Below, piece by piece: positions 11,794 through 21,640 of a stretch of 64,000 bases of DNA. The DNA lies in the NCBI RefSeq assembly GCF_030384885.1, contig NZ_CP128613.1; one strand, 5' to 3'. The stretch comes from Escherichia coli. Lineage in GTDB: Bacteria; Pseudomonadota; Gammaproteobacteria; Enterobacterales; Enterobacteriaceae. Within the stretch, counting starts at the first letter, position 1; the number at the start of each line of letters is the position of its first letter. The position numbers and the translations under genes were made by a program. The notes beneath the pieces are model-generated. The model was given only the letters and a program-made list of their open reading frames with translations. It did not search any database and was not told where the DNA came from.

Positions 11794-11883
11794 GGAGAGA
11801 TGCCGGAGCGGCTGAACGGACCGGTCTCGAAAACCGGAGTAGGGGCAACTCTACCGGGGGTTCAAATCCCCCTCTCTCCGCCA
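11794..11883 (+). tRNA. serU: tRNA-Ser
   Basis: 90 nt GGAGAGATGCCGGAGCGGCTGAACGGACCGGTCTCGAAAACCGG...CTCTCCGCCA, long variable arm typical of tRNA-Ser. Confidence 0.9.
11870..11883. repeat. attL core: serU 3' end (CCCTCTCTCCGCCA)
   Basis: 14 bp identical to the copy at 34279-34292. Confidence 0.6.
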
Positions 11884-12161
11884 ATCATTCAACAAAATCA
11901 ATCACTTACAAAGCGTTTTTGATTTTGTCATGCATAAATCCCTGCATTAAAATTCCTTTCGCTCGCTCGATTTTTCTTACTACTGATGCTGTTTTTTACC
12001 ATTTTGCTGCGCGTCGGGCATCCACTTTTATGCTCTCGAGTTCACACTCTTAACAACAACTTAGCCATTCCCCCGTTTCTAATGACAAAACAGTTGAACT
12101 TCAATTGTTCCAAACGGATCCTGTGAAGATATATCAAAGGAAATGGATTGTTGGAGGATGG

Positions 12162-13007
12162 ATGAAAAGAAGTGAAATCAGGAAAGCACTGGAAGCATGG
12201 TTTGATGTAGAACGCTATGAGGCGATAGAGAAACTCACCTTACAGCAGTTTTATGTTGAGGTTGAGCGGCGCATCTTGGCTTACAGAATGTTGTTGAGCC
12301 GGAAAACCATACCTACCTTTAACCGATTAATGCTGGATGATTACCGCAACAAGATCCTCAGCGGTGAAATCTTTTTCAGTGGTGATACTGCCACCATTGG
12401 ACATGAGCTTGCCAGAACCTATGCGGTAAACCCTACGACACGAAGCCATGCGCAATTTTATGCGAAAACCCTGTCATTAACCGAAGCCACGCCTGAACTC
12501 TCTGGGTTAAGCCAGTCTGAATTTCTGTCCGAGTATCTGAAAGAGACATCCCTTAATAATCTTTCACGCATTACTGTCGATATTCATCTGGAAGAAGCAT
12601 CAACCGAAGAGATCATTGAACATCTGAAAGTGCTGCTCCCCCAATGGAAGAGACAGCTCAAGATGAAGTCTCCAGCTCCAAGAGAGTATCGTTTTGGTAA
12701 AAGCACATTCAGAAAAATCATTGAATATCGTCTTATCCCGATGATGGACCTGATCTTCTGGGGAGAAGATAATGGCATTAAAATCCCGCTTTCACTGATT
12801 TCTTCGTTGCTTCACGAGGACAGTGACAACGATCGTGATGAAGGAATGCTCAAGGCTACAGATTACCCGTTAGCAATGGCTTTTCTGACTGACGCGAGCT
12901 ATCTGAAATCGCTTGAAGATTACATGATGGAAAACAACCACTTGAGAGACTCCCCGGTTGAAAAGCATGTAGAAGACGACAGGAATAAGAAAAAAGAAGC
13001 CAAGTAA
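12162..13007 (+). CDS. Hypothetical protein (island-borne)
   Basis: ORF 12105..13007; ATG at 12162 (MKRSEIRKALEAWFD...); no recognisable motif. Confidence 0.4.
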   Translation: MKRSEIRKALEAWFDVERYEAIEKLTLQQFYVEVERRILAYRMLLSRKTIPTFNRLMLDDYRNKILSGEIFFSGDTATIGHELARTYAVNPTTRSHAQFYAKTLSLTEATPELSGLSQSEFLSEYLKETSLNNLSRITVDIHLEEASTEEIIEHLKVLLPQWKRQLKMKSPAPREYRFGKSTFRKIIEYRLIPMMDLIFWGEDNGIKIPLSLISSLLHEDSDNDRDEGMLKATDYPLAMAFLTDASYLKSLEDYMMENNHLRDSPVEKHVEDDRNKKKEAK

Positions 13008-13213
13008 AAAGGGTTACGTTCGCTCCGTGCGAACGTGATCGCATCCAGTGTTAACCGTTATCTTTCCATTCGCTTCCCTTCGACATTTTCAAAAAAAACT
13101 TCTTTGAACGTCCCTAAATTGTCATAAGCAAAATCGCTATCATTGTTCACGTCGAAACAACATAGAGAAAACAAAATCTCATAGAGATTACTTACAATAA
13201 TAGAGGACAGACA

Positions 13214-13432
13214 ATGAAAGAAAATATTGAAACCAGCGTAAAACGATTTATCCGCGTTCCTGATGTTTTAAATCGGGTGGGATTCAGTCGCACGACCTTA
13301 TATGAGCGTATTAAGGAAGGAAACTTTCCAGACAGAGTAAAAATAGGTCCGAGGTGTGTCGCTTTTGTTGAAAGTGAGATTGATGAATGGATTGAAGCAA
13401 CTATTCGGAACTCACGCCAGAACGCTGCATAA
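13214..13432 (+). CDS. alpA: AlpA-family phage/island transcriptional regulator
   Basis: 72 aa with MerR-like HTH (RFIRVPDVLNRVGFSRTTLYERIKEGNFP), typical of P4/CP4-57-type elements. Confidence 0.75.
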   Translation: MKENIETSVKRFIRVPDVLNRVGFSRTTLYERIKEGNFPDRVKIGPRCVAFVESEIDEWIEATIRNSRQNAA

Positions 13433-13513
13433 AAACAGAAACAAGATCTCGTGTCGAACAGGTAACTGTTAGCACAGGGCATCTTTTTACCCTTAACAAT
13501 AATGGAGAAGATT

Positions 13514-13804
13514 ATGAAGATTGAACTTATTACGACAAAACAGTTTATTGAACAAGCCGAATGTTATTTCAGGAACTATATGGACGGATTGCGGAGGAAT
13601 GCACCAGATGATTTTTATTATTTTCTCAACAATAAATACAATATGAATGACATTATGGAAAGTATCATTAAAAAAACACGGTATCATTTTTATGATGACA
13701 CCGAAGAAGGCAAAAGGAATCGGATTTATGGAGAAGTAAGCCACAGTAAGGTAAAGCAACACCTTCATCAGCTTTGGATTGTCTATAAGTGTGTATATCG
13801 CTAA
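13514..13804 (+). CDS. Hypothetical protein
   Basis: ORF in same orientation downstream of alpA; no recognisable motif. Confidence 0.3.
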   Translation: MKIELITTKQFIEQAECYFRNYMDGLRRNAPDDFYYFLNNKYNMNDIMESIIKKTRYHFYDDTEEGKRNRIYGEVSHSKVKQHLHQLWIVYKCVYR

Positions 13805-13847
13805 TACTACAGCATTTTATTTTAATATTAACCAAAAGGAAAAGCCA

Positions 13848-14144
13848 ATGAATACATTTAAAAATAAAAATACTGAAATCTTTTATGTTGTGTCCTTGCA
13901 TATCTACGCAGAGCTTTTTAACTCAAAGGATAAAACGACCAGTAATATGATTATAACGCATGTAATGGATTATGAGTTTGTCTGTAGGCTAATCGATCTG
14001 GCGATGAGGAATGCTGAGAAGCATCTTCTGAAAAAAGCATGGAAAAAAAACGCTGCTGAAAAACTGTCTGAGGTGGATTTTAAAGGGGTTAAGCAGGCAT
14101 TAGCCAAAATGCATTATACGGTTCTGGCGGAATCAATATGTTGA
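13848..14144 (+). CDS. Hypothetical protein
   Basis: ORF 13779..14144 with internal ATG 13848 after RBS-like aaggaaaag. Confidence 0.3.
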   Translation: MNTFKNKNTEIFYVVSLHIYAELFNSKDKTTSNMIITHVMDYEFVCRLIDLAMRNAEKHLLKKAWKKNAAEKLSEVDFKGVKQALAKMHYTVLAESIC

Positions 14145-14216
14145 TATGTTCTGACGTCTATCAGCCCCTTCTTGGGGCTGATAATAAATCTTATTTATCT
14201 ATCCAAGGAGCAAAAA

Positions 14217-14459
14217 ATGATTGATGAATTTCATGTGATGTATATGTATAAAAAAATCCAAGCAGAAGCCGCAACCACTGACATCAAAACACTTGAACAG
14301 CTTTTGAAAAAGTTCAGGAGCGTGGTTAACGAACGTCGTGAAGAATACTATCAGGAGATTGGTGAGAAAAAAGCGCGTAAGTTGAAAATGAAAAGAGCAC
14401 AAAGATTACTTGAGAAAATGGTATGTGACCGGGTTTCGCCAGAAGATCTCATTGACTGA
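14217..14459 (+). CDS. Hypothetical small protein
   Basis: ATG at 14217 preceded by aaggag RBS; charged, helical-looking 80 aa. Confidence 0.35.
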   Translation: MIDEFHVMYMYKKIQAEAATTDIKTLEQLLKKFRSVVNERREEYYQEIGEKKARKLKMKRAQRLLEKMVCDRVSPEDLID

Positions 14460-14831
14460 TAAGTGTTCAACCAAAATTTTTTAGAATGTAGTATTACGAC
14501 CAATCGCAATAACATGTGGCATTTATGTATTCAGAAATCTGCTGATATGGAGGTCAACAGTTGTCTCGTGCATCTGCAACCCCCGTGGGATAATGGTGGG
14601 TGTTAACATCTGATTATCAAGAGAATGAGCATTCCCGAAGAAAACATAGAGTCTTTAAACGCGGTTTCGTTTGGTCATTGATGAAGATCTTCACGGGTAT
14701 GGCAGCCTATTTGTTTGTGAAAGAAAACATTATTTTTCAAATGGTTAGTGTAAATGATGATAACACGTCATGTGATCATAACTTATTGATCTTCTAGTTT
14801 TTTTGTGCATAATCCATAATATGAGTACTTA

Positions 14832-16682
14832 GTGGAACTTATGATGGATTTTTTATATCAGGAATTAGCAAAAGCAGGGATAGCACTTTCTGTCAAAGAG
14901 CTTTTCACTCGCGTGGTATCTGCATGGGATAAAAAAAATTTAAGTGGGAAGCAACTTGTTAGAGAGTTGACTGGTTCAGAGGTATATCTGAACTATCTTG
15001 AGAAACATGTAGCAAGAGTGGTCCGACTAAGAACGATCCATAGTGCTGATTATGATATTCTGCTGACTAATTTATATCATCCATTAGGTATCACATCTTT
15101 ATCTCCCGGTGCAACTGAACATAAAGTCAATGACGGCTTCTATATAGAAAATCAACATATTACTAATATCATAGGAATAGCAGGGCAAGGGAAAAGTACT
15201 ATTTTAAGAAAACTGTTCATAGAACAAATAAAGAATGGAACAAAAATACCATTTTTTATTGAATTACGTAGAACTGGAAATGATGGGATCATTAAATCTC
15301 TTGAAAATACATTAATCAATCTTGGATTATACCCGACGTCCCAAGCAATTGATGAATTGTTATTTAGTAATAAAATATCTTTAATGTTAGATGGATTTGA
15401 TGAGGTCAACTCAAAGCAAAAAGATATTTTACTAAGTGAGATATTGATGCTAAACGTAAAATATGCATTGCAAGTAATAGTTACGTCGAGACCGGGTACA
15501 ACTGTTTGCAATGAACCATCAATTGTTAATTATAAAGTCGAAAAACTTAAAGAAAAAGACATACTGGCAATTATAGAAAAACTCAATACTAACAATGGAG
15601 TTATAGACAAAGAACAATTGCCGAAAATAAAAGATACAATTAAAAATAACAAAAATCTTGTTTCTGTGATGACTTCACCTATTCTGGTAACGCTTTTTCA
15701 TGTCTGTTATCCATTCATGGATATTATCCCCAATAATACAGTAGAATTTTATTCAAATCTGTTTATGACATTATATCTTCGACATGACAAAGTTAAAAAC
15801 TTTGACCGCGAAAAATCTTCCTCTTTAAGTCATAATGAAGCATATGACTGTTTCTGTACATTATGTTTTTACTCAATTTATACGAATAATCATGAATTTA
15901 CAGAGCAGTCACTAAATGAATATACAGAAAAATCAATGAAGTTAAAGGGACGGTTTGGTGAATGCAAAGCGGAGTCATTAGCTCAGGATTTTATTAATGT
16001 AACTTGTTTAATTCAGCGAGAAGGCTTTAATAAATATATCTTTATTCATAAATCGATTCAAGAGTATCATGCAGCAGAATTTATAAAAAATATATCATCA
16101 GATCAGAAAAATAAATTTTATAGTTTTCTTGTTGAAGATATTAAAAAAAATGAATTACGATTTTCTAATGTTATAGTATTCCTTAAAGAAATAGATGTCA
16201 TAGATTGTGCTAAATTCTTAATTATTCCACTGTGCGAATATTTTGGCGTTTCAAAATGGAATGCTTTGACCCCATTGGAATACAAGGATTTATTACGTAC
16301 ATTTTTCTCCGATACCTACATTCATTTATTTAATGACATTAATGATAAAGATATAATGGGGTTCAGTTCATTATCAGGGGTTAGTGGCTGGATGCAATTA
16401 TTAGATATCAGCGGCAATAATGATTTATATACGCCTGTGTTTGAAGTGTTAATAGATGAATCATTGTCAAGTGCGAATTTTAAAGATGTTGTAACCAGTC
16501 AAGATCGGCAAATGGTAAAAGTTTCATTTATGAAGGCAATAATACAATTAGGGATTGAAGACAAAATAGTTGAAGTGTTTATCAAAAATATTAAGAAAAT
16601 ACATAACGAAGTATATTGTGAAGCCATTAATAAAGTAAATAACGAGGATGTTAGTATTAAGGAGTTCTTTGATCTGATTTAA
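14832..16682 (+). CDS. NACHT-family STAND NTPase (bacterial NLR-like), short form
   Basis: Walker A GIAGQGKST, Walker B LMLDGFDEV, sensor-1 VIVTSRP; about 115 aa N-terminal and about 300 aa C-terminal regions unassigned. Confidence 0.7.
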   Translation: MELMMDFLYQELAKAGIALSVKELFTRVVSAWDKKNLSGKQLVRELTGSEVYLNYLEKHVARVVRLRTIHSADYDILLTNLYHPLGITSLSPGATEHKVNDGFYIENQHITNIIGIAGQGKSTILRKLFIEQIKNGTKIPFFIELRRTGNDGIIKSLENTLINLGLYPTSQAIDELLFSNKISLMLDGFDEVNSKQKDILLSEILMLNVKYALQVIVTSRPGTTVCNEPSIVNYKVEKLKEKDILAIIEKLNTNNGVIDKEQLPKIKDTIKNNKNLVSVMTSPILVTLFHVCYPFMDIIPNNTVEFYSNLFMTLYLRHDKVKNFDREKSSSLSHNEAYDCFCTLCFYSIYTNNHEFTEQSLNEYTEKSMKLKGRFGECKAESLAQDFINVTCLIQREGFNKYIFIHKSIQEYHAAEFIKNISSDQKNKFYSFLVEDIKKNELRFSNVIVFLKEIDVIDCAKFLIIPLCEYFGVSKWNALTPLEYKDLLRTFFSDTYIHLFNDINDKDIMGFSSLSGVSGWMQLLDISGNNDLYTPVFEVLIDESLSSANFKDVVTSQDRQMVKVSFMKAIIQLGIEDKIVEVFIKNIKKIHNEVYCEAINKVNNEDVSIKEFFDLI

Positions 16683-16893
16683 TATTTGAAATATGTTTTA
16701 ATTAAGTTGATCTGTTTTTATCTGGTTAACTATACAGAAATATCAAGGCACTATTACTTGGCAACAACCCATATAAAAAGGTATGTCCGTAATAAGATTT
16801 GAAAGAGTATTAATAGATTAATATGTATAATATTATTTTGTAACGAGGCTGACATAGTGAGAACAGGCAACCTCGGATCGTATACATAAAATT

Positions 16894-17298
16894 TTAGATG
16901 GCAAAGTCTTCCAGTGTCTTACCAGCTTCGATAGCAGCAGCGATTGCTTTAGGAGTACGGCCCTGACCCGTCCAAGTCTGCTCATTACCGTTTTCATCTG
17001 TATATTTGTATTTAGCAGGACGAGGAGCACGAGTTGATTTGGTTTTAGGCTGGGATGAACCAACTGAAGCGAGTAGTTCTGTAGGATCGATACCGTCTTC
17101 TAATAATTTCTGGCGGAAGGCTTCAAGTTTAGCCTGACGTTCTTCTTGTTCTTTACGGGCTGAATTTTCTTCCTCACGGCGATCTTCAACGATTGTGGTG
17201 AGTTTTTCCAGCATCTCTTCCAGAGTTGCCAGATCTGTTTCACGAGCCTGTGCGCGAAGTGTACGAATATTGTTCAGTGCCTTAAGAGCTTCACTCAT
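16894..17298 (-). CDS. hfp: H-NS family nucleoid-associated protein (Hfp/H-NS paralogue)
   Basis: C-terminal DNA-binding motif [10 protein letters not shown] and H-NS-like coiled-coil N-terminus; 134 aa. Confidence 0.8.
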
Positions 17299-17454
17299 AG
17301 TATGTCATCCGGTGTTTTAAAATGGGCGATTAATAAAAATAATGCTTACGGTGCTGTTGGAAAAGTCAAAAAAACAGTCAGTAAATAATATAGTAAACAT
17401 TATCGTTTAAGCAATCTAATACATCTCATTTCACACGAATAGCATAGGGTCGTT

Positions 17455-17934
17455 TTACAGAGATATTTTCCTGCGCTTGTGGCTTGATGGTTCAAACTCT
17501 GACGAGATACGAGATAGTTGCTCAAGACTCTGTTCAATTGAACGCTGGAACTCCATAGCGGCTTCTGTACGCTGTTTTATGACCAAGGCAACTATTTCTT
17601 CATCAGTCTTTTCTGAAATAGCCTTACGGTATAACACGCGTTCGTTAAATAAATCGAGATTACCAGTTGATCTCGCTGATGTGTTAGCTTTTGAACTGCT
17701 GATAGGATTTAACTCGTCAATAAAGTATTCAATAAGAGATCCTCTCTTTTTTTCAAGTCTGCGAAGTTCGGTATGTGCAGACTTAAATTTTTGAGCCTTA
17801 ACCAATGGAATGTCATCGGAACGCAGTTTGCGATATTCATTTCTGTATTCTTCTATAGAAATATGATTTTTTAGTTCTTTGACTGTATTTACGTATTCGA
17901 TTAAATCACTGTTGTCTGTTTTTACTTTTCTCAT
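17455..17934 (-). CDS. Hypothetical coiled-coil protein
   Basis: 159 aa ORF upstream of hfp on the same strand. Confidence 0.4.
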   Translation of the reverse strand: MRKVKTDNSDLIEYVNTVKELKNHISIEEYRNEYRKLRSDDIPLVKAQKFKSAHTELRRLEKKRGSLIEYFIDELNPISSSKANTSARSTGNLDLFNERVLYRKAISEKTDEEIVALVIKQRTEAAMEFQRSIEQSLEQLSRISSEFEPSSHKRRKISL

Positions 17935-17997
17935 AAGAATACCTCGTTAATAAATGATGGATATATTTATATTACGAGATATGGTGTTAGTGTCAAA

Positions 17998-18045
17998 TTA
18001 GCTCTTTAGCTCTTTAGCTCTTTAGCTCTTTAGCTCTTTAGCTCT
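17998..18045. repeat. Perfect octanucleotide tandem repeat (TTAGCTCT)x6
   Basis: Six exact copies counted directly, 64-111 bp upstream of the 17934 start codon. Confidence 0.95.
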
Positions 18046-18126
18046 GTTTCTCTCTTGGTAAGAAAATCCCTTTAGTGTAATAGGAGGTTATTACGGAGAT
18101 ATTTTTGCCTGTTTTTCCGCTGGTAA

Positions 18127-18684
18127 TTAATTTTTGTTATTCACTGTTTTCTTTTTGTCCTTCAAGTAATAAGTTTTCATGAAAGTTAAACGATCACCAT
18201 TAAACATATAGTCTGGATTAATAAAATAATAGTTCTGTATCATGGTCTCAGCAATAAATTTCTTGTCAGCAAGTTCTTTCATCCCTTTGAAATATGTCGT
18301 TCTTGATATTTTTACAATCTCTTGATCAACAATATCGAATGACATTAATATCGTATCTGTATCTTTATTGTCTCTAATAGCAAGATACAGTATCTTAAAT
18401 ACTTTCTTACCTGATGAGGATAAACCCTCAATAGCTGATACGCCATCCACATAAAGCTTCACGAACTGTGTCTTGTCTACTTCCATTGACTGAAAGAAAC
18501 CACCATGCCCAACCTGTTCTCCTGTATTTTCATTTACTACGGCTAAGCGGTCTTTTCCTGTTGTGATACGTCTGATACCTGTTTTTGTATGTATATTTGT
18601 ATCATTAAGGAATGGGTTTTTTACATGGCGAGGTAGACCTCTTCTTGATTTCTTTACTTCCGTTTGTATCTTATTTTCTATCAT
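18127..18684 (-). CDS. Hypothetical protein
   Basis: 185 aa ORF, basic N-terminus; no motif recognised. Confidence 0.4.
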   Translation of the reverse strand: MIENKIQTEVKKSRRGLPRHVKNPFLNDTNIHTKTGIRRITTGKDRLAVVNENTGEQVGHGGFFQSMEVDKTQFVKLYVDGVSAIEGLSSSGKKVFKILYLAIRDNKDTDTILMSFDIVDQEIVKISRTTYFKGMKELADKKFIAETMIQNYYFINPDYMFNGDRLTFMKTYYLKDKKKTVNNKN

Positions 18685-19096
18685 GGTACTTACTCCTTTA
18701 TTTTTTTAGTTATACATTTAAGTAAATACTATATTTTGCGTGCAAGTCAATACTTAAAGTTTATATTTTTTAAAATAACTAACACTTGATGTTTTTACGT
18801 ATAAAACTTGTAGTGCTACAGAATATATACAAATAACACTTTATTATTTTTATTTGAGAATAGTTATCAACTTAAGTACCGGGATTCGGGACTTTAACTC
18901 CCGAGAGTGCGTACTTTGTTTTAAGCTATAGCTGGCTTGAGAGCAGTTTTCTTCTTCATTATTCAAATAGCGAAGCTTTGGATGACATTTTAAAGAATAT
19001 AATATTGGAAATAGTTCTTCTTTTTAGTTGATTGGTGCCTTATCAAAATGGCACCAGTGGTGTTATCTGTGTTATTTTTCCTACTATGTTATTACA

Positions 19097-19276
19097 GCGA
19101 AGTGATTGTTGTATACAATCACGAACCGCTGCTACTATCGGGACTGCTTGATTAATTTTACTTTAACTTTATATGCGTCTACGACGCGATCTTTTTTGGA
19201 TAAATCCAATATTAACAGGGGCAAGCCCTGTTCAGCAGAGTGATTGTTCGCAACAATCACGAAGTGCTGCTATCAA
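19097..19276. promoter_or_regulatory. Pair of related ~40 bp elements, each containing a 21 bp palindrome (GTGATTGTTnnnAACAATCAC), with intervening hairpins
   Basis: Palindromes at 19102-19122 and 19240-19260 followed by the conserved tail GAA(C/G)(C/T)GCTGCTA; hairpin plus T-run 19171-19195; hairpin 19216-19230. Confidence 0.5.
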
Positions 19277-19602
19277 GGATATAGTTTTCCTATACGTTTA
19301 AGAGCAAATGCTATATGTCTAAAGGGAAAAACTATGTTTAAACATAGGATCTAAATTCAGCATCATGAGGAAAAGAGATCAAACAATGATCGAGTACTTT
19401 TCTTTTTATTTAAAAAACAGGAGATGAATAAAATAAAAATATCAGCGTCAGGGCGTAGCCGTGCGTAAGCACAGAGATAAAGATCTTTTCAATAAGAAGT
19501 TTAATAATCAGTAGTGAAATCATAAATAAAATAAAAATATATTTGATTTTTACGCCTGCGATAGAGTATTAAACAGTAATAAAATAATAAAAGGAAAATA
19601 TA

Positions 19603-19872
19603 ATGAACAATACCAAAATGATCACTCTCTTCCATCCACATGACAAAACACCATTTATAATCTGTATTGTAAACAAAGTAGAAGATACAGACCACGGATT
19701 GAAATTAACCCTTGAAAACGGCAACAATATTTGTGTCAATAATTATAGTCATTATCTGTTATCAGAGTCTGTAAGTCGTTGCGATAAACACAGGTTAAAA
19801 AATATTTATATTCGCTTGGTTTCAGAACTCACGCAGATGAGTGAAAAAACTATAAATTCGCAAATGTTATAA
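19603..19872 (+). CDS. Hypothetical protein
   Basis: 89 aa ORF after a long AT-rich non-coding region. Confidence 0.3.
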   Translation: MNNTKMITLFHPHDKTPFIICIVNKVEDTDHGLKLTLENGNNICVNNYSHYLLSESVSRCDKHRLKNIYIRLVSELTQMSEKTINSQML

Positions 19873-19950
19873 AATATCTATAAAGACATAATAAATATTT
19901 TTGATATTATGATTAGTTGCATGGTATTAAATAAAAACAGGAAAAATATC

Positions 19951-20355
19951 ATGCTAAAAATAAAAACAAAGATCTATATACCTACAACTTTAACAGGAAA
20001 CATGGATAAACACTATATCCCTGTTTTAGAGGATTTAAGAAAAGCGATATACAGCGACAGAATGTTATCAAGGCTTGCAGATAGCGGCAATATTGTTATC
20101 CATAGTTCAGTTGGGTATCCGGTTGCTAAATACAAAAATACGGGTATTAGCATAGGTATAGAACCATTGAATCCAATGATAAGACAAAATCTGACTCTTG
20201 GATATATTATGGTTGTCAGAAACGGAAAAGCATCACAGGAGATTAATGGTTTACTTAACAGGTCATTGCCAAAAGCAATAAGCACTTTTAAGGATCACAT
20301 CAATGAATATGAAGCAGTAAAAAGTAAAATGCGACAACAAACTATGATCTGGTAA
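19951..20355 (+). CDS. Hypothetical protein
   Basis: ATG 19951 preceded by agga RBS; 134 aa. Confidence 0.35.
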   Translation: MLKIKTKIYIPTTLTGNMDKHYIPVLEDLRKAIYSDRMLSRLADSGNIVIHSSVGYPVAKYKNTGISIGIEPLNPMIRQNLTLGYIMVVRNGKASQEINGLLNRSLPKAISTFKDHINEYEAVKSKMRQQTMIW

Positions 20356-20469
20356 AATATTTAGTCTGATAACTACAGGAGAAGGATGAGCAATGGAAGG
20401 TAAGTTAATTTTTGTTCCGATGCAATACTACGGTTTCAATCCAATTACGATGAAACCGCTGCCGTTCCA

Positions 20470-21432
20470 TTGCTATCCATCCAGAACGTCATAGCCAATA
20501 CCGATCCGTTCTTTCTTCTCCGGTTCTTCCACCATACCGTTCTGATTGAAGAAGGAACAACGCTGGCAAGTATCTTTCTGGCAATAGAACCATGGAAGGC
20601 TTTGTTAGCAGCTTATCTGGACAGAGATGTTGGTGCTTATATAGATGAGGTAAGAAAACCGTCCGGGCCAACGGCATGGGATATTGAATGGATCGGAATT
20701 GACCGTCGAAGTTCGGTTTATCGCGCTTACAAGCGTCAGGATATGGAAGAAGGGGAGGATTTTTCGACCTATTTTAATCGCGAGCGCTTCCCGACTGATG
20801 AGCTTGACATAGAAAGTAGCTGTGATGCTTCCGGCTTTATCAAAGGAGATAAAGAACGCTGGAGTATCAGCGGCGATATTCAACAAATTAAAAATCTTCC
20901 TGTAATCCTCTATAGCAAACAGACATTAATGACTTCACCGAAAGACGGTTTGCTGAAGAAAAACGTATCGGGTGTGAAGAGTTCCAAGCACAGTTGCTTT
21001 GTTTATGGCGATACCTCGTTTTCTTTTAGAGAGGTTATGGAAGCCATCTTCATTAGTAGGCTGTTCTTCTATGCACCAAAAGACGCAGCCAGCAGCCTTG
21101 ATGAGCTGAAAGCGAGTCTGGCTGAACTGGAAGAAGAACGTGCTGAAAGCACAAATACGGAGTCGATCGGCAATGAAACAGGTGAAGAACCTACCATCGT
21201 CGTAGCCGACGGTGCTTTTGATTCGCTCGCTGCTCACATGGAGTCTGAAAAGCGGAGTGGCAATCCATTAAGAAGTTGTGCCAGCAGGAAGGAGGGCTGC
21301 CCATACGTATTGGCAACATCAAAATGGCTGAGCCTCCAGCGTTATAGCTATTTTAAGAAAAGAAATGATGTAAATATGCATCTGGTTTTTCTTTATAATG
21401 TAAGGATGTCCGATGAAACATCAGCATCGTGA
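20470..21432 (+). CDS. Hypothetical protein (non-ATG start, higher GC than neighbours)
   Basis: 320 aa ORF beginning at TTG; acidic helical segment (DELKASLAELEEERAE); start uncertain. Confidence 0.3.
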   Translation: MLSIQNVIANTDPFFLLRFFHHTVLIEEGTTLASIFLAIEPWKALLAAYLDRDVGAYIDEVRKPSGPTAWDIEWIGIDRRSSVYRAYKRQDMEEGEDFSTYFNRERFPTDELDIESSCDASGFIKGDKERWSISGDIQQIKNLPVILYSKQTLMTSPKDGLLKKNVSGVKSSKHSCFVYGDTSFSFREVMEAIFISRLFFYAPKDAASSLDELKASLAELEEERAESTNTESIGNETGEEPTIVVADGAFDSLAAHMESEKRSGNPLRSCASRKEGCPYVLATSKWLSLQRYSYFKKRNDVNMHLVFLYNVRMSDETSAS

Positions 21433-21640
21433 ATGTTATCTGGTTAATAATTTTCTTATGTAATATTATCTATGCCATCTGGCTATGTTTTCAATTGTTT
21501 TAGTTCTCGACAACTGTTTTTATATCCAGTATGATTTTACTCGTATCCGGCAGAATATTTTTAGATGCTGTTTCATGAACTCCGGTTGAAAGGTTTATTC
21601 TCTACTTTTGGGAATAATAGTTAAAATGGAGATAAGTGTA

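Follow-up and report, generated by a model that had tools for sequence, protein, structure and literature searches.

Within the window analysed here, a 64,000-nt stretch of the Escherichia coli contig NZ_CP128613.1, the gene at 14844..16682 on the plus strand is, with a probability of roughly 85%, an intact anti-phage NACHT gene of the bNACHT01/bNACHT12 type (clade 14) that is carried as cargo by a serU-type mobilizable island. The open reading frame listing gives a 616-aa ORF from a GTG (14832..16682, plus strand) that lies four codons upstream of the ATG at 14844. This ATG, which yields 612 aa plus a stop codon and the N-terminus MDFLYQELAKAG, is most likely the real start, since the N-terminus then agrees both with that of bNACHT01 (MDIIQELTKAG) and with the family-wide 'MD/ME' start; the product annotated in public records has 612 or 613 aa. 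A reading frame of 1.85 kb at 30.5% GC far exceeds what is expected by chance, and full-length homology and the dN/dS ratio (see below) also identify it as a gene. Numbered from the ATG at 14844, the Walker A motif GIAGQGKST is found at aa 111-119 (nt 15174-15200), the Walker B motif LMLDGFDEV at aa 180-188 (nt 15381-15407) and the sensor-1 motif VIVTSRP at aa 211-217 (nt 15474-15494), so that all three motifs quoted in an initial annotation of this DNA were recovered. In an alignment of 40 family sequences, G111 and A113-T119 of Walker A, D183, G184, D186 and E187 of Walker B, and R216 are invariant, and the motifs are therefore not degenerate. The protein thus carries the GxxGxGK[ST] and hhhhDGhDE patterns and the sensor-1 arginine of a clade-14 NACHT, and it matches the Pfam NACHT model (PF05729) with E=6e-10. 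The initial annotation was right to see a genuine NACHT-family STAND NTPase, and judging from its homologues the gene very probably serves in defence.

With regard to family membership, the protein is homologous and colinear over its full length to the clade-14 references (bNACHT01, 02, 11, 12 and 23), with identities of 58% to bNACHT01, 61.5% to bNACHT12 and 39-41% to bNACHT11 and bNACHT02-like proteins. Clade 14 has been described as the most abundant bNACHT clade and consists of single-gene systems encoding proteins of about 600-640 aa. The initial annotation had considered the protein shorter than the known bacterial NLR-like proteins, a view that is contradicted by the size range of this clade and by the 58-62% identity to two of its tested members. 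bNACHT01, 02, 11 and 12 each defend as a single cloned gene, and the operons listed for the tested homologues contain one gene each. The gene adds one allele to a defence family of NLR-like single genes that is already characterised and abundant, and its importance in this respect is limited.

The founding clade-14 member (NACHT plus SNaCT), bNACHT01 of Klebsiella pneumoniae MGH 35 (WP_015632533.1; the entry P0135, as confirmed from the published Table S2), shares 58% identity and 76% similarity with the present protein along 611 colinear residues. It functions alone from its own promoter and defends E. coli against T4, T5 and T6 as a single gene, for which K115 is required. The two proteins share this Walker A lysine (K117 in the present protein), the MDxxxQEL-KAG N-terminus and a C-terminal FFDL, but their SNaCT domains agree at only 29% of positions, and at 22% across the final 126 aa. 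They also differ in context, as bNACHT01 is located beside a type II CBASS on IncFII Klebsiella plasmids, with neither H-NS genes nor the small ORFs nearby. bNACHT12 from E. coli HVH 41 (WP_021519735.1, also found on plasmid pEC012-4), a clade-14 single gene that defends E. coli against T4, T6 and MS2 (Kibby et al.), is likewise 612 aa long and colinear, with identities of 63% in the N-terminus, 72% in the NACHT module and 36% in the SNaCT domain. Its gene adjoins IS elements on an IncFII-type plasmid, whereas the present one is chromosomal and located in a serU island. An Avs/AVAST identity was rejected: proteins of that kind combine an N-terminal enzymatic effector with a long TPR-like sensor at the C-terminus, whereas the present one has only 612 aa, lacks both a repeat sensor and an enzymatic domain, and is not matched by any PADLOC Avs model. 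Neither PADLOC nor NCBIfam matched the protein; the PADLOC result is uninformative, since bNACHT01 and bNACHT12 themselves give no meaningful match.

The protein divides into three parts. The first (14844..15041, plus strand, aa 1-66, starting MDFLYQELAKAG) is an N-terminal helical region. An AF2 model contains four helices here, with pLDDT values of 85-94 at aa 11-60, and hhalign aligns the region with the N-termini of the MDPIT group at 98.9% (E=1e-17). In the 40-sequence alignment the protein has kept M-D at positions 1-2 and the E7/K10/G12 pattern, while the consensus residues P3 and T5 are replaced by F and Y, in keeping with the bNACHT01/12 sub-branch, in which position 3 is I or L. It may be added that bNACHT01 (I at position 3) and bNACHT12 (L) are both active although neither has the conserved P3 of bNACHT11. 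The region is a putative membrane-acting effector by analogy with bNACHT11, the one homologue for which this role has been demonstrated. The initial annotation had stated that no recognisable effector domain is fused to the NTPase; this is correct for enzymatic domains, none of which was detected by Pfam or in the AF2 model, but the same N-terminus is homologous to the effector extension of bNACHT11 (hhalign, 98.9%).

The second part, the NACHT module (15042..16184, plus strand, aa 67-447, with boundaries mapped from Table S1 for bNACHT01), is 70-72% identical to those of bNACHT01 and bNACHT12. A single-sequence search of PDB sequences gave no match, and the family profile retrieved only NLRC4/NLRP entries (NLRC4, E=5e-9) from PDB copies that lack the bNACHT11 structure 9ORF. 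The AF2 model as a whole (pLDDT 84.8) has its best structural matches in NLRC4, NOD2, NLRP3 and NAIP, the best Foldseek match being NLRC4 (4kxf, E=3e-13), and the fold is accordingly predicted to be NLR-like. These eukaryotic proteins have the fold of the NACHT module in common with the present protein at about 16% identity, but they possess an LRR sensor and a CARD/PYD effector, which are absent from the much shorter bacterial protein.

The third part (16194..16679, plus strand, aa 451-612) is a C-terminal sensor domain of the SNaCT type, short (about 160 aa), without repeats and more variable than the NACHT module (column entropy of 2.77 versus 1.52 bits). The Pfam model SNaCT1 (PF22710) does not match the protein, and among the 40 family members it matches only the eight of the Vibrio/Aeromonas branch; homology was therefore established by pairwise and profile-profile comparison. 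The C-terminus alone is 29% identical to the bNACHT01 SNaCT (E=2e-27), 29-36% identical to the corresponding region of the tested relatives, and aligned by hhalign with bNACHT11/02-like C-termini at 97.3%. It is also the least confident part of the AF2 model (pLDDT 59-73 at aa 491-560). The gene evolves under purifying selection, its sensor part changing faster than the NACHT part: compared with the Salmonella orthologue, dN/dS is 0.09 overall, 0.02 in the NACHT region and 0.14-0.22 in SNaCT, which fits the published rapid diversification of SNaCT. Since identity to the bNACHT01/12 sensors is only 29-36%, the phage targets probably differ from theirs and a different phage range is expected. 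Moreover, the combination of such a divergent sensor with a core of about 70% identity makes the protein a natural domain-swap partner for mapping how SNaCT recognises phage proteins.

The most likely function of the gene is abortive-infection phage defence, and the model that we propose for its mechanism is taken from bNACHT11 (WP_114260439.1, cryo-EM 9ORF), a protein only about 39-41% identical to the present one. In bNACHT11, SNaCT binds phage proteins by beta-augmentation, the protein forms a heptamer, and a short N-terminal MD... extension acts as effector, plasmolysis being dependent on it. bNACHT11 has the same three-part layout, with N- and C-termini homologous by profile comparison, and the best PDB matches of its fold are NLRC4 and NAIP, as is also the case for the AF2 model described above. 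It differs in length (639 aa), in insertions in SNaCT, and in its N-terminal motif, MDPIT as compared with MDFLY, so that P3 is not conserved. From such homologues we infer that the gene confers defence, that its product senses phage proteins directly and oligomerises, and that its effector acts on the membrane. In the uninfected cell the protein would be a monomer with nucleotide bound. Upon infection, one or more phage proteins would be bound by the variable SNaCT domain, and this binding would release NTP-dependent oligomerisation of the NACHT module. The oligomer would cluster the short helical 'MD...' N-termini, which might then harm the inner membrane or upset osmotic homeostasis, so that the infected cell would die or be arrested ahead of phage release. 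It should be underlined that the known activators of bNACHT11 (T2 gp6, gp9 and gp57) cannot be assumed to activate the present protein.

The element that carries the gene is a serU-type integrative mobilizable island of 22.4 kb (11870..34292), delimited by the direct (att) repeat CCCTCTCTCCGCCA, of which one copy is the 3' end of a tRNA-Ser (11870-11883) and the other lies at 34279-34292. It encodes an integrase (32897-34114) and a MobQ relaxase (26888-28369), and its GC content is 37.7% as opposed to 50% in the core; an Rfam scan of the island returned the tRNA-Ser only. The tRNA flank, integrase, att repeat, genes for H-NST and H-NSB, and low GC are together the features of the serU/EARL (ROD21-like) islands, which are also situated at the tRNA-Ser adjoining mtfA and measure about 22.4 kb. 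The backbone (DUF6387, AlpA, two small ORFs and hnsT on one side, hnsB, DUF4756 and RepL on the other) is about 94% identical to that of the UPEC islands of CFT073, 536 and Nissle. These islands hold two hypothetical genes between hnsT and hnsB, and it is there that the NACHT gene is found in the present island. Homology to the UPEC and other serU islands stops at 14468 (or 14184) and restarts at 16894, and this break defines a swapped cargo cassette (14469..16893, 31% GC) that extends from the hnsT stop to the hnsB stop and takes in the NACHT gene and its upstream region alone. The position of the gene thereby gives exact limits to a cargo slot that adjoins the H-NS paralogues in serU-type islands.

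Sister islands have other cargo in the slot between hnsT and hnsB: a type I CBASS, a protein with a NucC-like nuclease domain, or a NACHT of another kind. Across E. coli at least six alternative gene sets occupy it, namely two NACHT types, type I CBASS, the nuclease-domain protein and two sets without assigned function. The latter (138+249 aa, and DUF6404) are reasonable candidates for new defence genes, because the same slot otherwise holds NACHT, CBASS and nuclease-domain cargo. The context is that of a defence island in other respects too, as the same island encodes a type I Thoeris (ThsA, E=9e-203; ThsB, E=1e-85) and the TIR protein PDC-S35 (E=6.5e-68).

The position of the gene could also be taken to mean that it is functionally coupled to the H-NS paralogues, for instance that this AT-rich defence gene is silenced by H-NS/H-NSB or other H-NS-type proteins of the element and switched on by H-NST or when phage inhibitors inactivate H-NS. 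If so, disturbance of H-NS would belong to the way in which infection is sensed, and a transcriptional 'guard' layer would be added to the NLR-like sensor. The gene is located between hnsT (14217..14459, plus strand), which encodes a truncated H-NS of 80 aa (H-NS N-terminal match in NCBIfam, E=8.5e-8) with 89% identity to UPEC H-NST, reported as an H-NS antagonist, and the convergent hnsB/hfp (16894..17298, minus strand), known from the literature as a full-length H-NS paralogue (NCBIfam H-NS, E=8e-53). Its GC content of 30.5% is typical of an H-NS target, and on IncX plasmids, an independent context, hha-hns is immediately followed by a bNACHT02-type gene. However, no H-NS gene is found near bNACHT01, bNACHT12 or the homologues at 18 other loci (too few for adjacency statistics), and bNACHT02 retained defence in a clone that included no more of hns than its final 71 codons. 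In addition, the slot adjoining hnsB accepts unrelated cargo, and both hnsT and hnsB are missing from the island with the other NACHT, so that a cargo hotspot adjoining backbone genes accounts for the adjacency. We therefore regard a dedicated coupling as unlikely; H-NS probably silences this DNA as it does AT-rich DNA in general, which would not amount to a dedicated mechanism. The hnsT gene is a backbone or semi-variable gene of the island and not a partner of the NACHT gene. As a separate observation, clade-14 NACHT genes stand beside H-NS-family genes in two independent contexts, the serU/EARL-type islands of E. coli and Salmonella and the IncX plasmids.

Upstream of the gene, the layout given in the initial annotation was confirmed, with an AlpA-like HTH regulator followed by three small ORFs on the same strand; the third of them proved to encode H-NST. 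The regulator (13214..13432, plus strand) is island backbone, identified by a Pfam Phage_AlpA match of its Salmonella orthologue and by HTH annotation in E. coli islands. The other two small ORFs (13514..14144, plus strand) encode 96 aa (13514-13804) and 98 aa (13848-14144); they are 86-92% identical in islands without this NACHT, and their PHROG families carry no functional assignment. The initial annotation had suggested that the three ORFs could provide the NACHT protein with an effector or regulator in trans. Their closeness to the gene on the same strand would agree with this, as would the conservation of the whole block from AlpA through the small ORFs and hnsT to the NACHT gene in Salmonella, at 90.6% nucleotide identity. 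Nevertheless, in E. coli serU islands the small ORFs, at 86-96% identity, also accompany five other cargo sets, namely two hypothetical genes, DUF6404, DUF6602, CBASS and another type of NACHT. Related loci were scanned in a genome collection with one genome per species, which yielded 18 loci, and together with the bNACHT01 and bNACHT12 plasmids there are 20 other distinct homologue loci. At none of the 18 do the small ORFs occur within 8 kb of the NACHT homologue, nor do they occur on the two plasmids, and they are thus consistently unlinked to the family. The other neighbours of the homologues are not conserved across the 20 loci either. Furthermore, the tested homologues are active alone, and hnsT and the NACHT gene are 384 bp apart, with a promoter-like site in between. 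These findings identify the small ORFs as backbone genes that accompany other cargo elsewhere, and a role for them in trans is very improbable. By comparison of these loci, the NACHT gene is probably a single-gene system without an obligate partner.

The promoter-like site, TTGATC-16-CATAAT (14786..14813, plus strand), lies within the cassette, precedes the start by 30 nt and was found by consensus scan only. As the sites returned by the promoter and terminator scan are no commoner than in shuffled sequence, its use as a promoter is only suggestive, and the NACHT gene might still be co-transcribed with hnsT. A 65-aa ORF in the same region (14600-14797) was rejected as a gene; it has no family match and no Salmonella counterpart called there, and it lies inside the upstream region of the cassette.

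Among 5,426 complete RefSeq E. coli genomes the gene is absent, the only matches being the plasmid gene for bNACHT12, at 70% identity, and short stretches around the Walker A region. Although this absence implies that the gene is dispensable, there is hardly any case for regarding it as a decaying or non-defence remnant, such as a housekeeping or MGE-maintenance NTPase, given the intact ORF, the invariant NTPase motifs, the dN/dS of 0.09, the anti-phage activity of close tested homologues, and the occurrence of the identical protein in several E. coli assemblies and of a 98% orthologue with a wide distribution in Salmonella and Klebsiella oxytoca. In public annotation the exact protein is described as a 'NACHT domain-containing protein'.

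The open reading frame at 14832-16682 (+) opens with GTG and encodes 616 aa, and at a gene GC content of 30.5% a reading frame of such length is implausible by chance. Translation more probably starts at ATG 14844, giving a product of 612 aa; the translation from this codon reads MDFLYQELAKAG, in agreement with the bNACHT01 N-terminus MDIIQELTKAG, an 'MD/ME' start is common to nearly the entire family in an alignment of 40 homologues, and public records give lengths of 612 or 613 aa. Counted from this ATG, the three motifs quoted in the initial annotation are all present, namely Walker A GIAGQGKST (aa 111-119), Walker B LMLDGFDEV (aa 180-188) and VIVTSRP (aa 211-217), and Pfam places a NACHT domain in the protein (E=6e-10). 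The motifs also hold on alignment, with G111 and A113-T119 of Walker A, D183, G184, D186 and E187 of Walker B, and R216 invariant across the 40 sequences. Relative to the Salmonella orthologue, the gene has a dN/dS of 0.09.

A search of 5.8 billion proteins showed that NACHT proteins of 600-650 aa form a large family in Enterobacterales, Vibrionales, Aeromonas, Pseudoalteromonas and others, the closest relatives (98% identical) being from Salmonella enterica and Klebsiella oxytoca. One match, P0135 (609 aa), is bNACHT01 (WP_015632533.1), its sequence being the one that Kibby et al. give in Table S2. Over 611 colinear residues the window protein shares 58% identity and 76% similarity with bNACHT01, and its identity to bNACHT12 (WP_021519735.1), encoded on E. 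coli plasmid pEC012-4, is 61.5%. Kibby et al. assign bNACHT01 (NACHT 65-445 and SNaCT 449-608; Table S1) to clade 14, which is monophyletic and has short C-terminal extensions without a fused enzymatic effector (bioRxiv 10.1101/2022.07.19.500537), and which a later preprint describes as the most abundant bNACHT clade (bioRxiv 10.1101/2024.12.17.629029). A length of 600-650 aa is the norm of this known family, so the protein is not unusually short for a bacterial NLR-like protein, as had been proposed. Judged by sequence, it qualifies as a clade-14 bNACHT in every respect examined except its exact N-terminal motif. It is a further, not yet assayed member of a known family, and a generic annotation is already public, since NCBI lists an identical protein from several E. 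coli assemblies as 'NACHT domain-containing protein'. One E. coli record of this identical protein sits on a 4.7-Mb contig.

The three regions of the protein differ in conservation. Identity to bNACHT01 and bNACHT12 is 56% and 63% in the N-terminus (aa 1-62), 70% and 72% in the NACHT module (aa 63-447), and 29% and 36% in the C-terminus (aa 448-612). Mean column entropy in the 40-sequence alignment is 1.52 bits for NACHT versus 2.77 bits for the C-terminus, and comparison of the E. coli gene with its Salmonella orthologue gives a dN/dS of 0.02 in NACHT and 0.14-0.22 in the C-terminus. This pattern reproduces the rapid diversification published for the C-terminal sensor domain, SNaCT (Kibby et al., bioRxiv 10.1101/2022.07.19.500537), and indicates relaxed or diversifying selection, with dN/dS staying below 1. 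The two alleles (14844-16679 versus 8004-9839 of the Salmonella locus) differ by 16 amino-acid-changing substitutions, 12 of them within the final 126 residues (SNaCT) and just two within the 385-residue NACHT module. With regard to synonymous sites, dS is higher in the 3' part (0.18-0.22 versus 0.10), and the sensor region may therefore have recombined.

Homology to the bNACHT01 SNaCT persists when the C-terminus is compared by itself (E=2e-27), and hhalign also relates it to the bNACHT11/02-like C-termini (97.3%, E=2e-11) and, less strongly, to those of the branch matching Pfam SNaCT1 (71%). The first 66 residues match the 'MDPIT' branch (hhalign 98.9%) and have D2, E7, K10 and G12 in common with it, but position 3 is F rather than P, and the N-terminal motif is of the bNACHT01/12 type (MD-hydrophobic), not MDPIT. 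An AlphaFold2 model built from the same alignment (mean pLDDT 84.8, pTM 0.82) shows four N-terminal helices and an NBD-helical-WHD core; the C-terminal domain comprises a beta-hairpin (aa 491-509), another strand and a long terminal helix, confidence being lowest in the C-terminal sheet. Foldseek against the PDB ranked NLRC4 highest (4kxf, E=3e-13), followed by NOD2, NLRP3 and NAIP, the same matches that are reported for the bNACHT11 cryo-EM structure (bioRxiv 10.1101/2024.12.17.629029).

What is shown here for the window protein (its architecture, its motifs, the predicted fold, the pattern of selection and the genomic context) is best accommodated if it acts as a single-protein abortive-infection sensor in phage defence, a reading to which we assign, by analogy with assayed relatives, a probability of roughly 0.85. 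bNACHT01 and bNACHT12, each cloned as a single gene with native upstream DNA, protected E. coli, the former against T4, T5 and T6 and the latter against T4, T6 and MS2, and in bNACHT01 defence depended on the Walker A lysine K115 (Kibby et al., bioRxiv 10.1101/2022.07.19.500537), the counterpart of K117 in the window protein. In bNACHT11, SNaCT binds several unrelated phage proteins via beta-augmentation and a hydrophobic patch, this binding drives heptamer assembly, and an N-terminal extension of ~45 residues (MDPIT), in which D2 and P3 are needed, causes plasmolysis-type cell death (bioRxiv 10.1101/2024.12.17.629029); Bell/Hell membrane-targeting domains and Avast2 have a similar helix, 'MEPIS', at the N-terminus (bioRxiv 10.1101/2024.11.07.622273). 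The window protein would likewise sense a trigger, then oligomerise and finally act on the membrane. Its phage range probably differs from theirs, since the sensor is just 29-36% identical to those of the tested alleles.

The gene lies on an island inserted next to core genes (hypF, hypE and mtfA, 100% identical to E. coli). GC drops from ~50% to 38% immediately past tRNA-Ser(cga) (11794-11883), whose 3' end, the 14-bp direct repeat CCCTCTCTCCGCCA (11870-11883), recurs at 34279-34292; the two copies set the island limits at 22.4 kb. The tyrosine integrase adjoining the second copy (32897-34114, -) and the MobQ relaxase (26888-28369, -), both within these limits, define an integrative mobilizable element, which also encodes RepL. 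The backbone is ~94% identical to the published UPEC serU island (CFT073, 536, Nissle). On the left side the order is DUF6387, an AlpA-like HTH gene, ORFs of 96 and 98 aa, hnsT and the NACHT gene, beyond which hnsB/hfp, DUF4756 and RepL are all convergent; according to the serU-island literature, hnsT encodes a truncated H-NS that antagonises H-NS, and hnsB/hfp a full-length H-NS paralogue. Moreover, a complete type I Thoeris (21608-23705) is present, comprising ThsA (21608-23077; SIR2/STALD, 489 aa, PADLOC E=9e-203) and ThsB (23094-23705; TIR, 203 aa, PADLOC E=1e-85), and a TIR-domain protein of PADLOC candidate family PDC-S35 (31967-32797, -; E=6.5e-68) adjoins the integrase. The serU-type island carrying the NACHT gene is a defence island. 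A ThsA_Macro gene is present too on the Salmonella sister island, and the TIR protein weakly resembles the CBASS NADase Cap12.

That the three small ORFs between alpA and the NACHT gene supply effector or regulatory functions in trans, as initially suggested, is contradicted by their distribution: they are kept with other cargo and are not linked to homologues elsewhere. The AlpA gene and the 96- and 98-aa ORFs are 86-96% identical among E. coli islands whatever the cargo. At 18 species-representative loci with NACHT homologues, on the bNACHT01 IncFII plasmids, where the NACHT neighbour is a type II CBASS, and on the bNACHT12 plasmid, no copy of the small ORFs, hnsT, hnsB, AlpA, DUF4756 or RepL occurred within 8 kb of the NACHT gene. 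By sequence comparison the small ORFs are island backbone and the NACHT gene swappable cargo. The observation in the initial annotation stands and its interpretation in part, without the trans partners and the unusual shortness. The whole AlpA-to-DUF4756 block was otherwise found only in the Salmonella island, at 90.6% identity, and is thus the same module. A search of 5,426 complete RefSeq E. coli genomes did not find the NACHT gene in any of them, although E. coli assemblies with the identical protein are on record, and an orthologue at 98% identity is widespread in Salmonella enterica (a cluster of 636 sequences) and Klebsiella oxytoca, which suggests that the module moved between genera recently.

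Nucleotide homology to UPEC islands ends at 14468, 9 bases past the hnsT stop, and restarts at 16894, the final base of the hnsB stop codon. Across comparisons the left junction is 14184/14185 or 14468, and the right one is 16894 in three of four. The junctions recur, and the interval from the 98-aa ORF/hnsT to the hnsB stop is a recurrent cargo-exchange slot of E. coli serU islands, for which at least six different gene sets, the present NACHT gene among them, were seen. Two hypothetical genes (138 and 249 aa) fill it in UPEC islands; in other complete E. coli genomes with the same backbone the slot holds a DUF6404 gene, a 129-aa gene with a DUF6602 protein bearing a NucC/PD-(D/E)xK-like domain, a type I CBASS (cyclase E=2e-167, 2TM effector E=2e-82), or another type of short NACHT (656 aa), 28% identical to the window protein and ~48% to bNACHT04/22. 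The slot sets of obscure role, the 138- plus 249-aa pair and DUF6404, are candidate defence genes. Of modest interest are the divergent sensor and the clear-cut limits of this defence-cargo slot next to hnsT and hnsB.

Clade-14 genes have H-NS paralogues as neighbours on two independent kinds of element: besides the serU-type islands, a clade-14 NACHT of the bNACHT02 type lies directly downstream of topB-hha-hns on IncX-type plasmids of ~47 kb. On one of these (5167-7599) the NACHT gene is broken into ORFs of 374 and 213 aa. We read this adjacency as cargo hotspots beside 'stealth' backbone genes, and generic silencing of the AT-rich NACHT gene by H-NS is plausible. A dedicated H-NS/NACHT coupling, possible given the repeated adjacency, is unlikely: most homologues have no nearby H-NS paralogue, and the cloned bNACHT02 fragment (Kibby et al. 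Table S2), which starts within the hns of the topB-hha-hns plasmid (98% identity) and holds just its last 71 codons, nevertheless protects from MS2 and T7 (Kibby et al., bioRxiv 10.1101/2022.07.19.500537), so the paralogue is not required.

Elsewhere on the island, a 478-aa ORF (30323-31759, +) is similar to phrog_523, the PHROG family 'tail collar fiber protein' (E=8e-44), and no other phage structural genes were found there. Between the DUF4756 gene and repL, at 17990-18053, the 8-bp unit TTAGCTCT occurs six times in tandem; these repeats are iteron-like and may be a RepL binding site or a site of island replication or maintenance.
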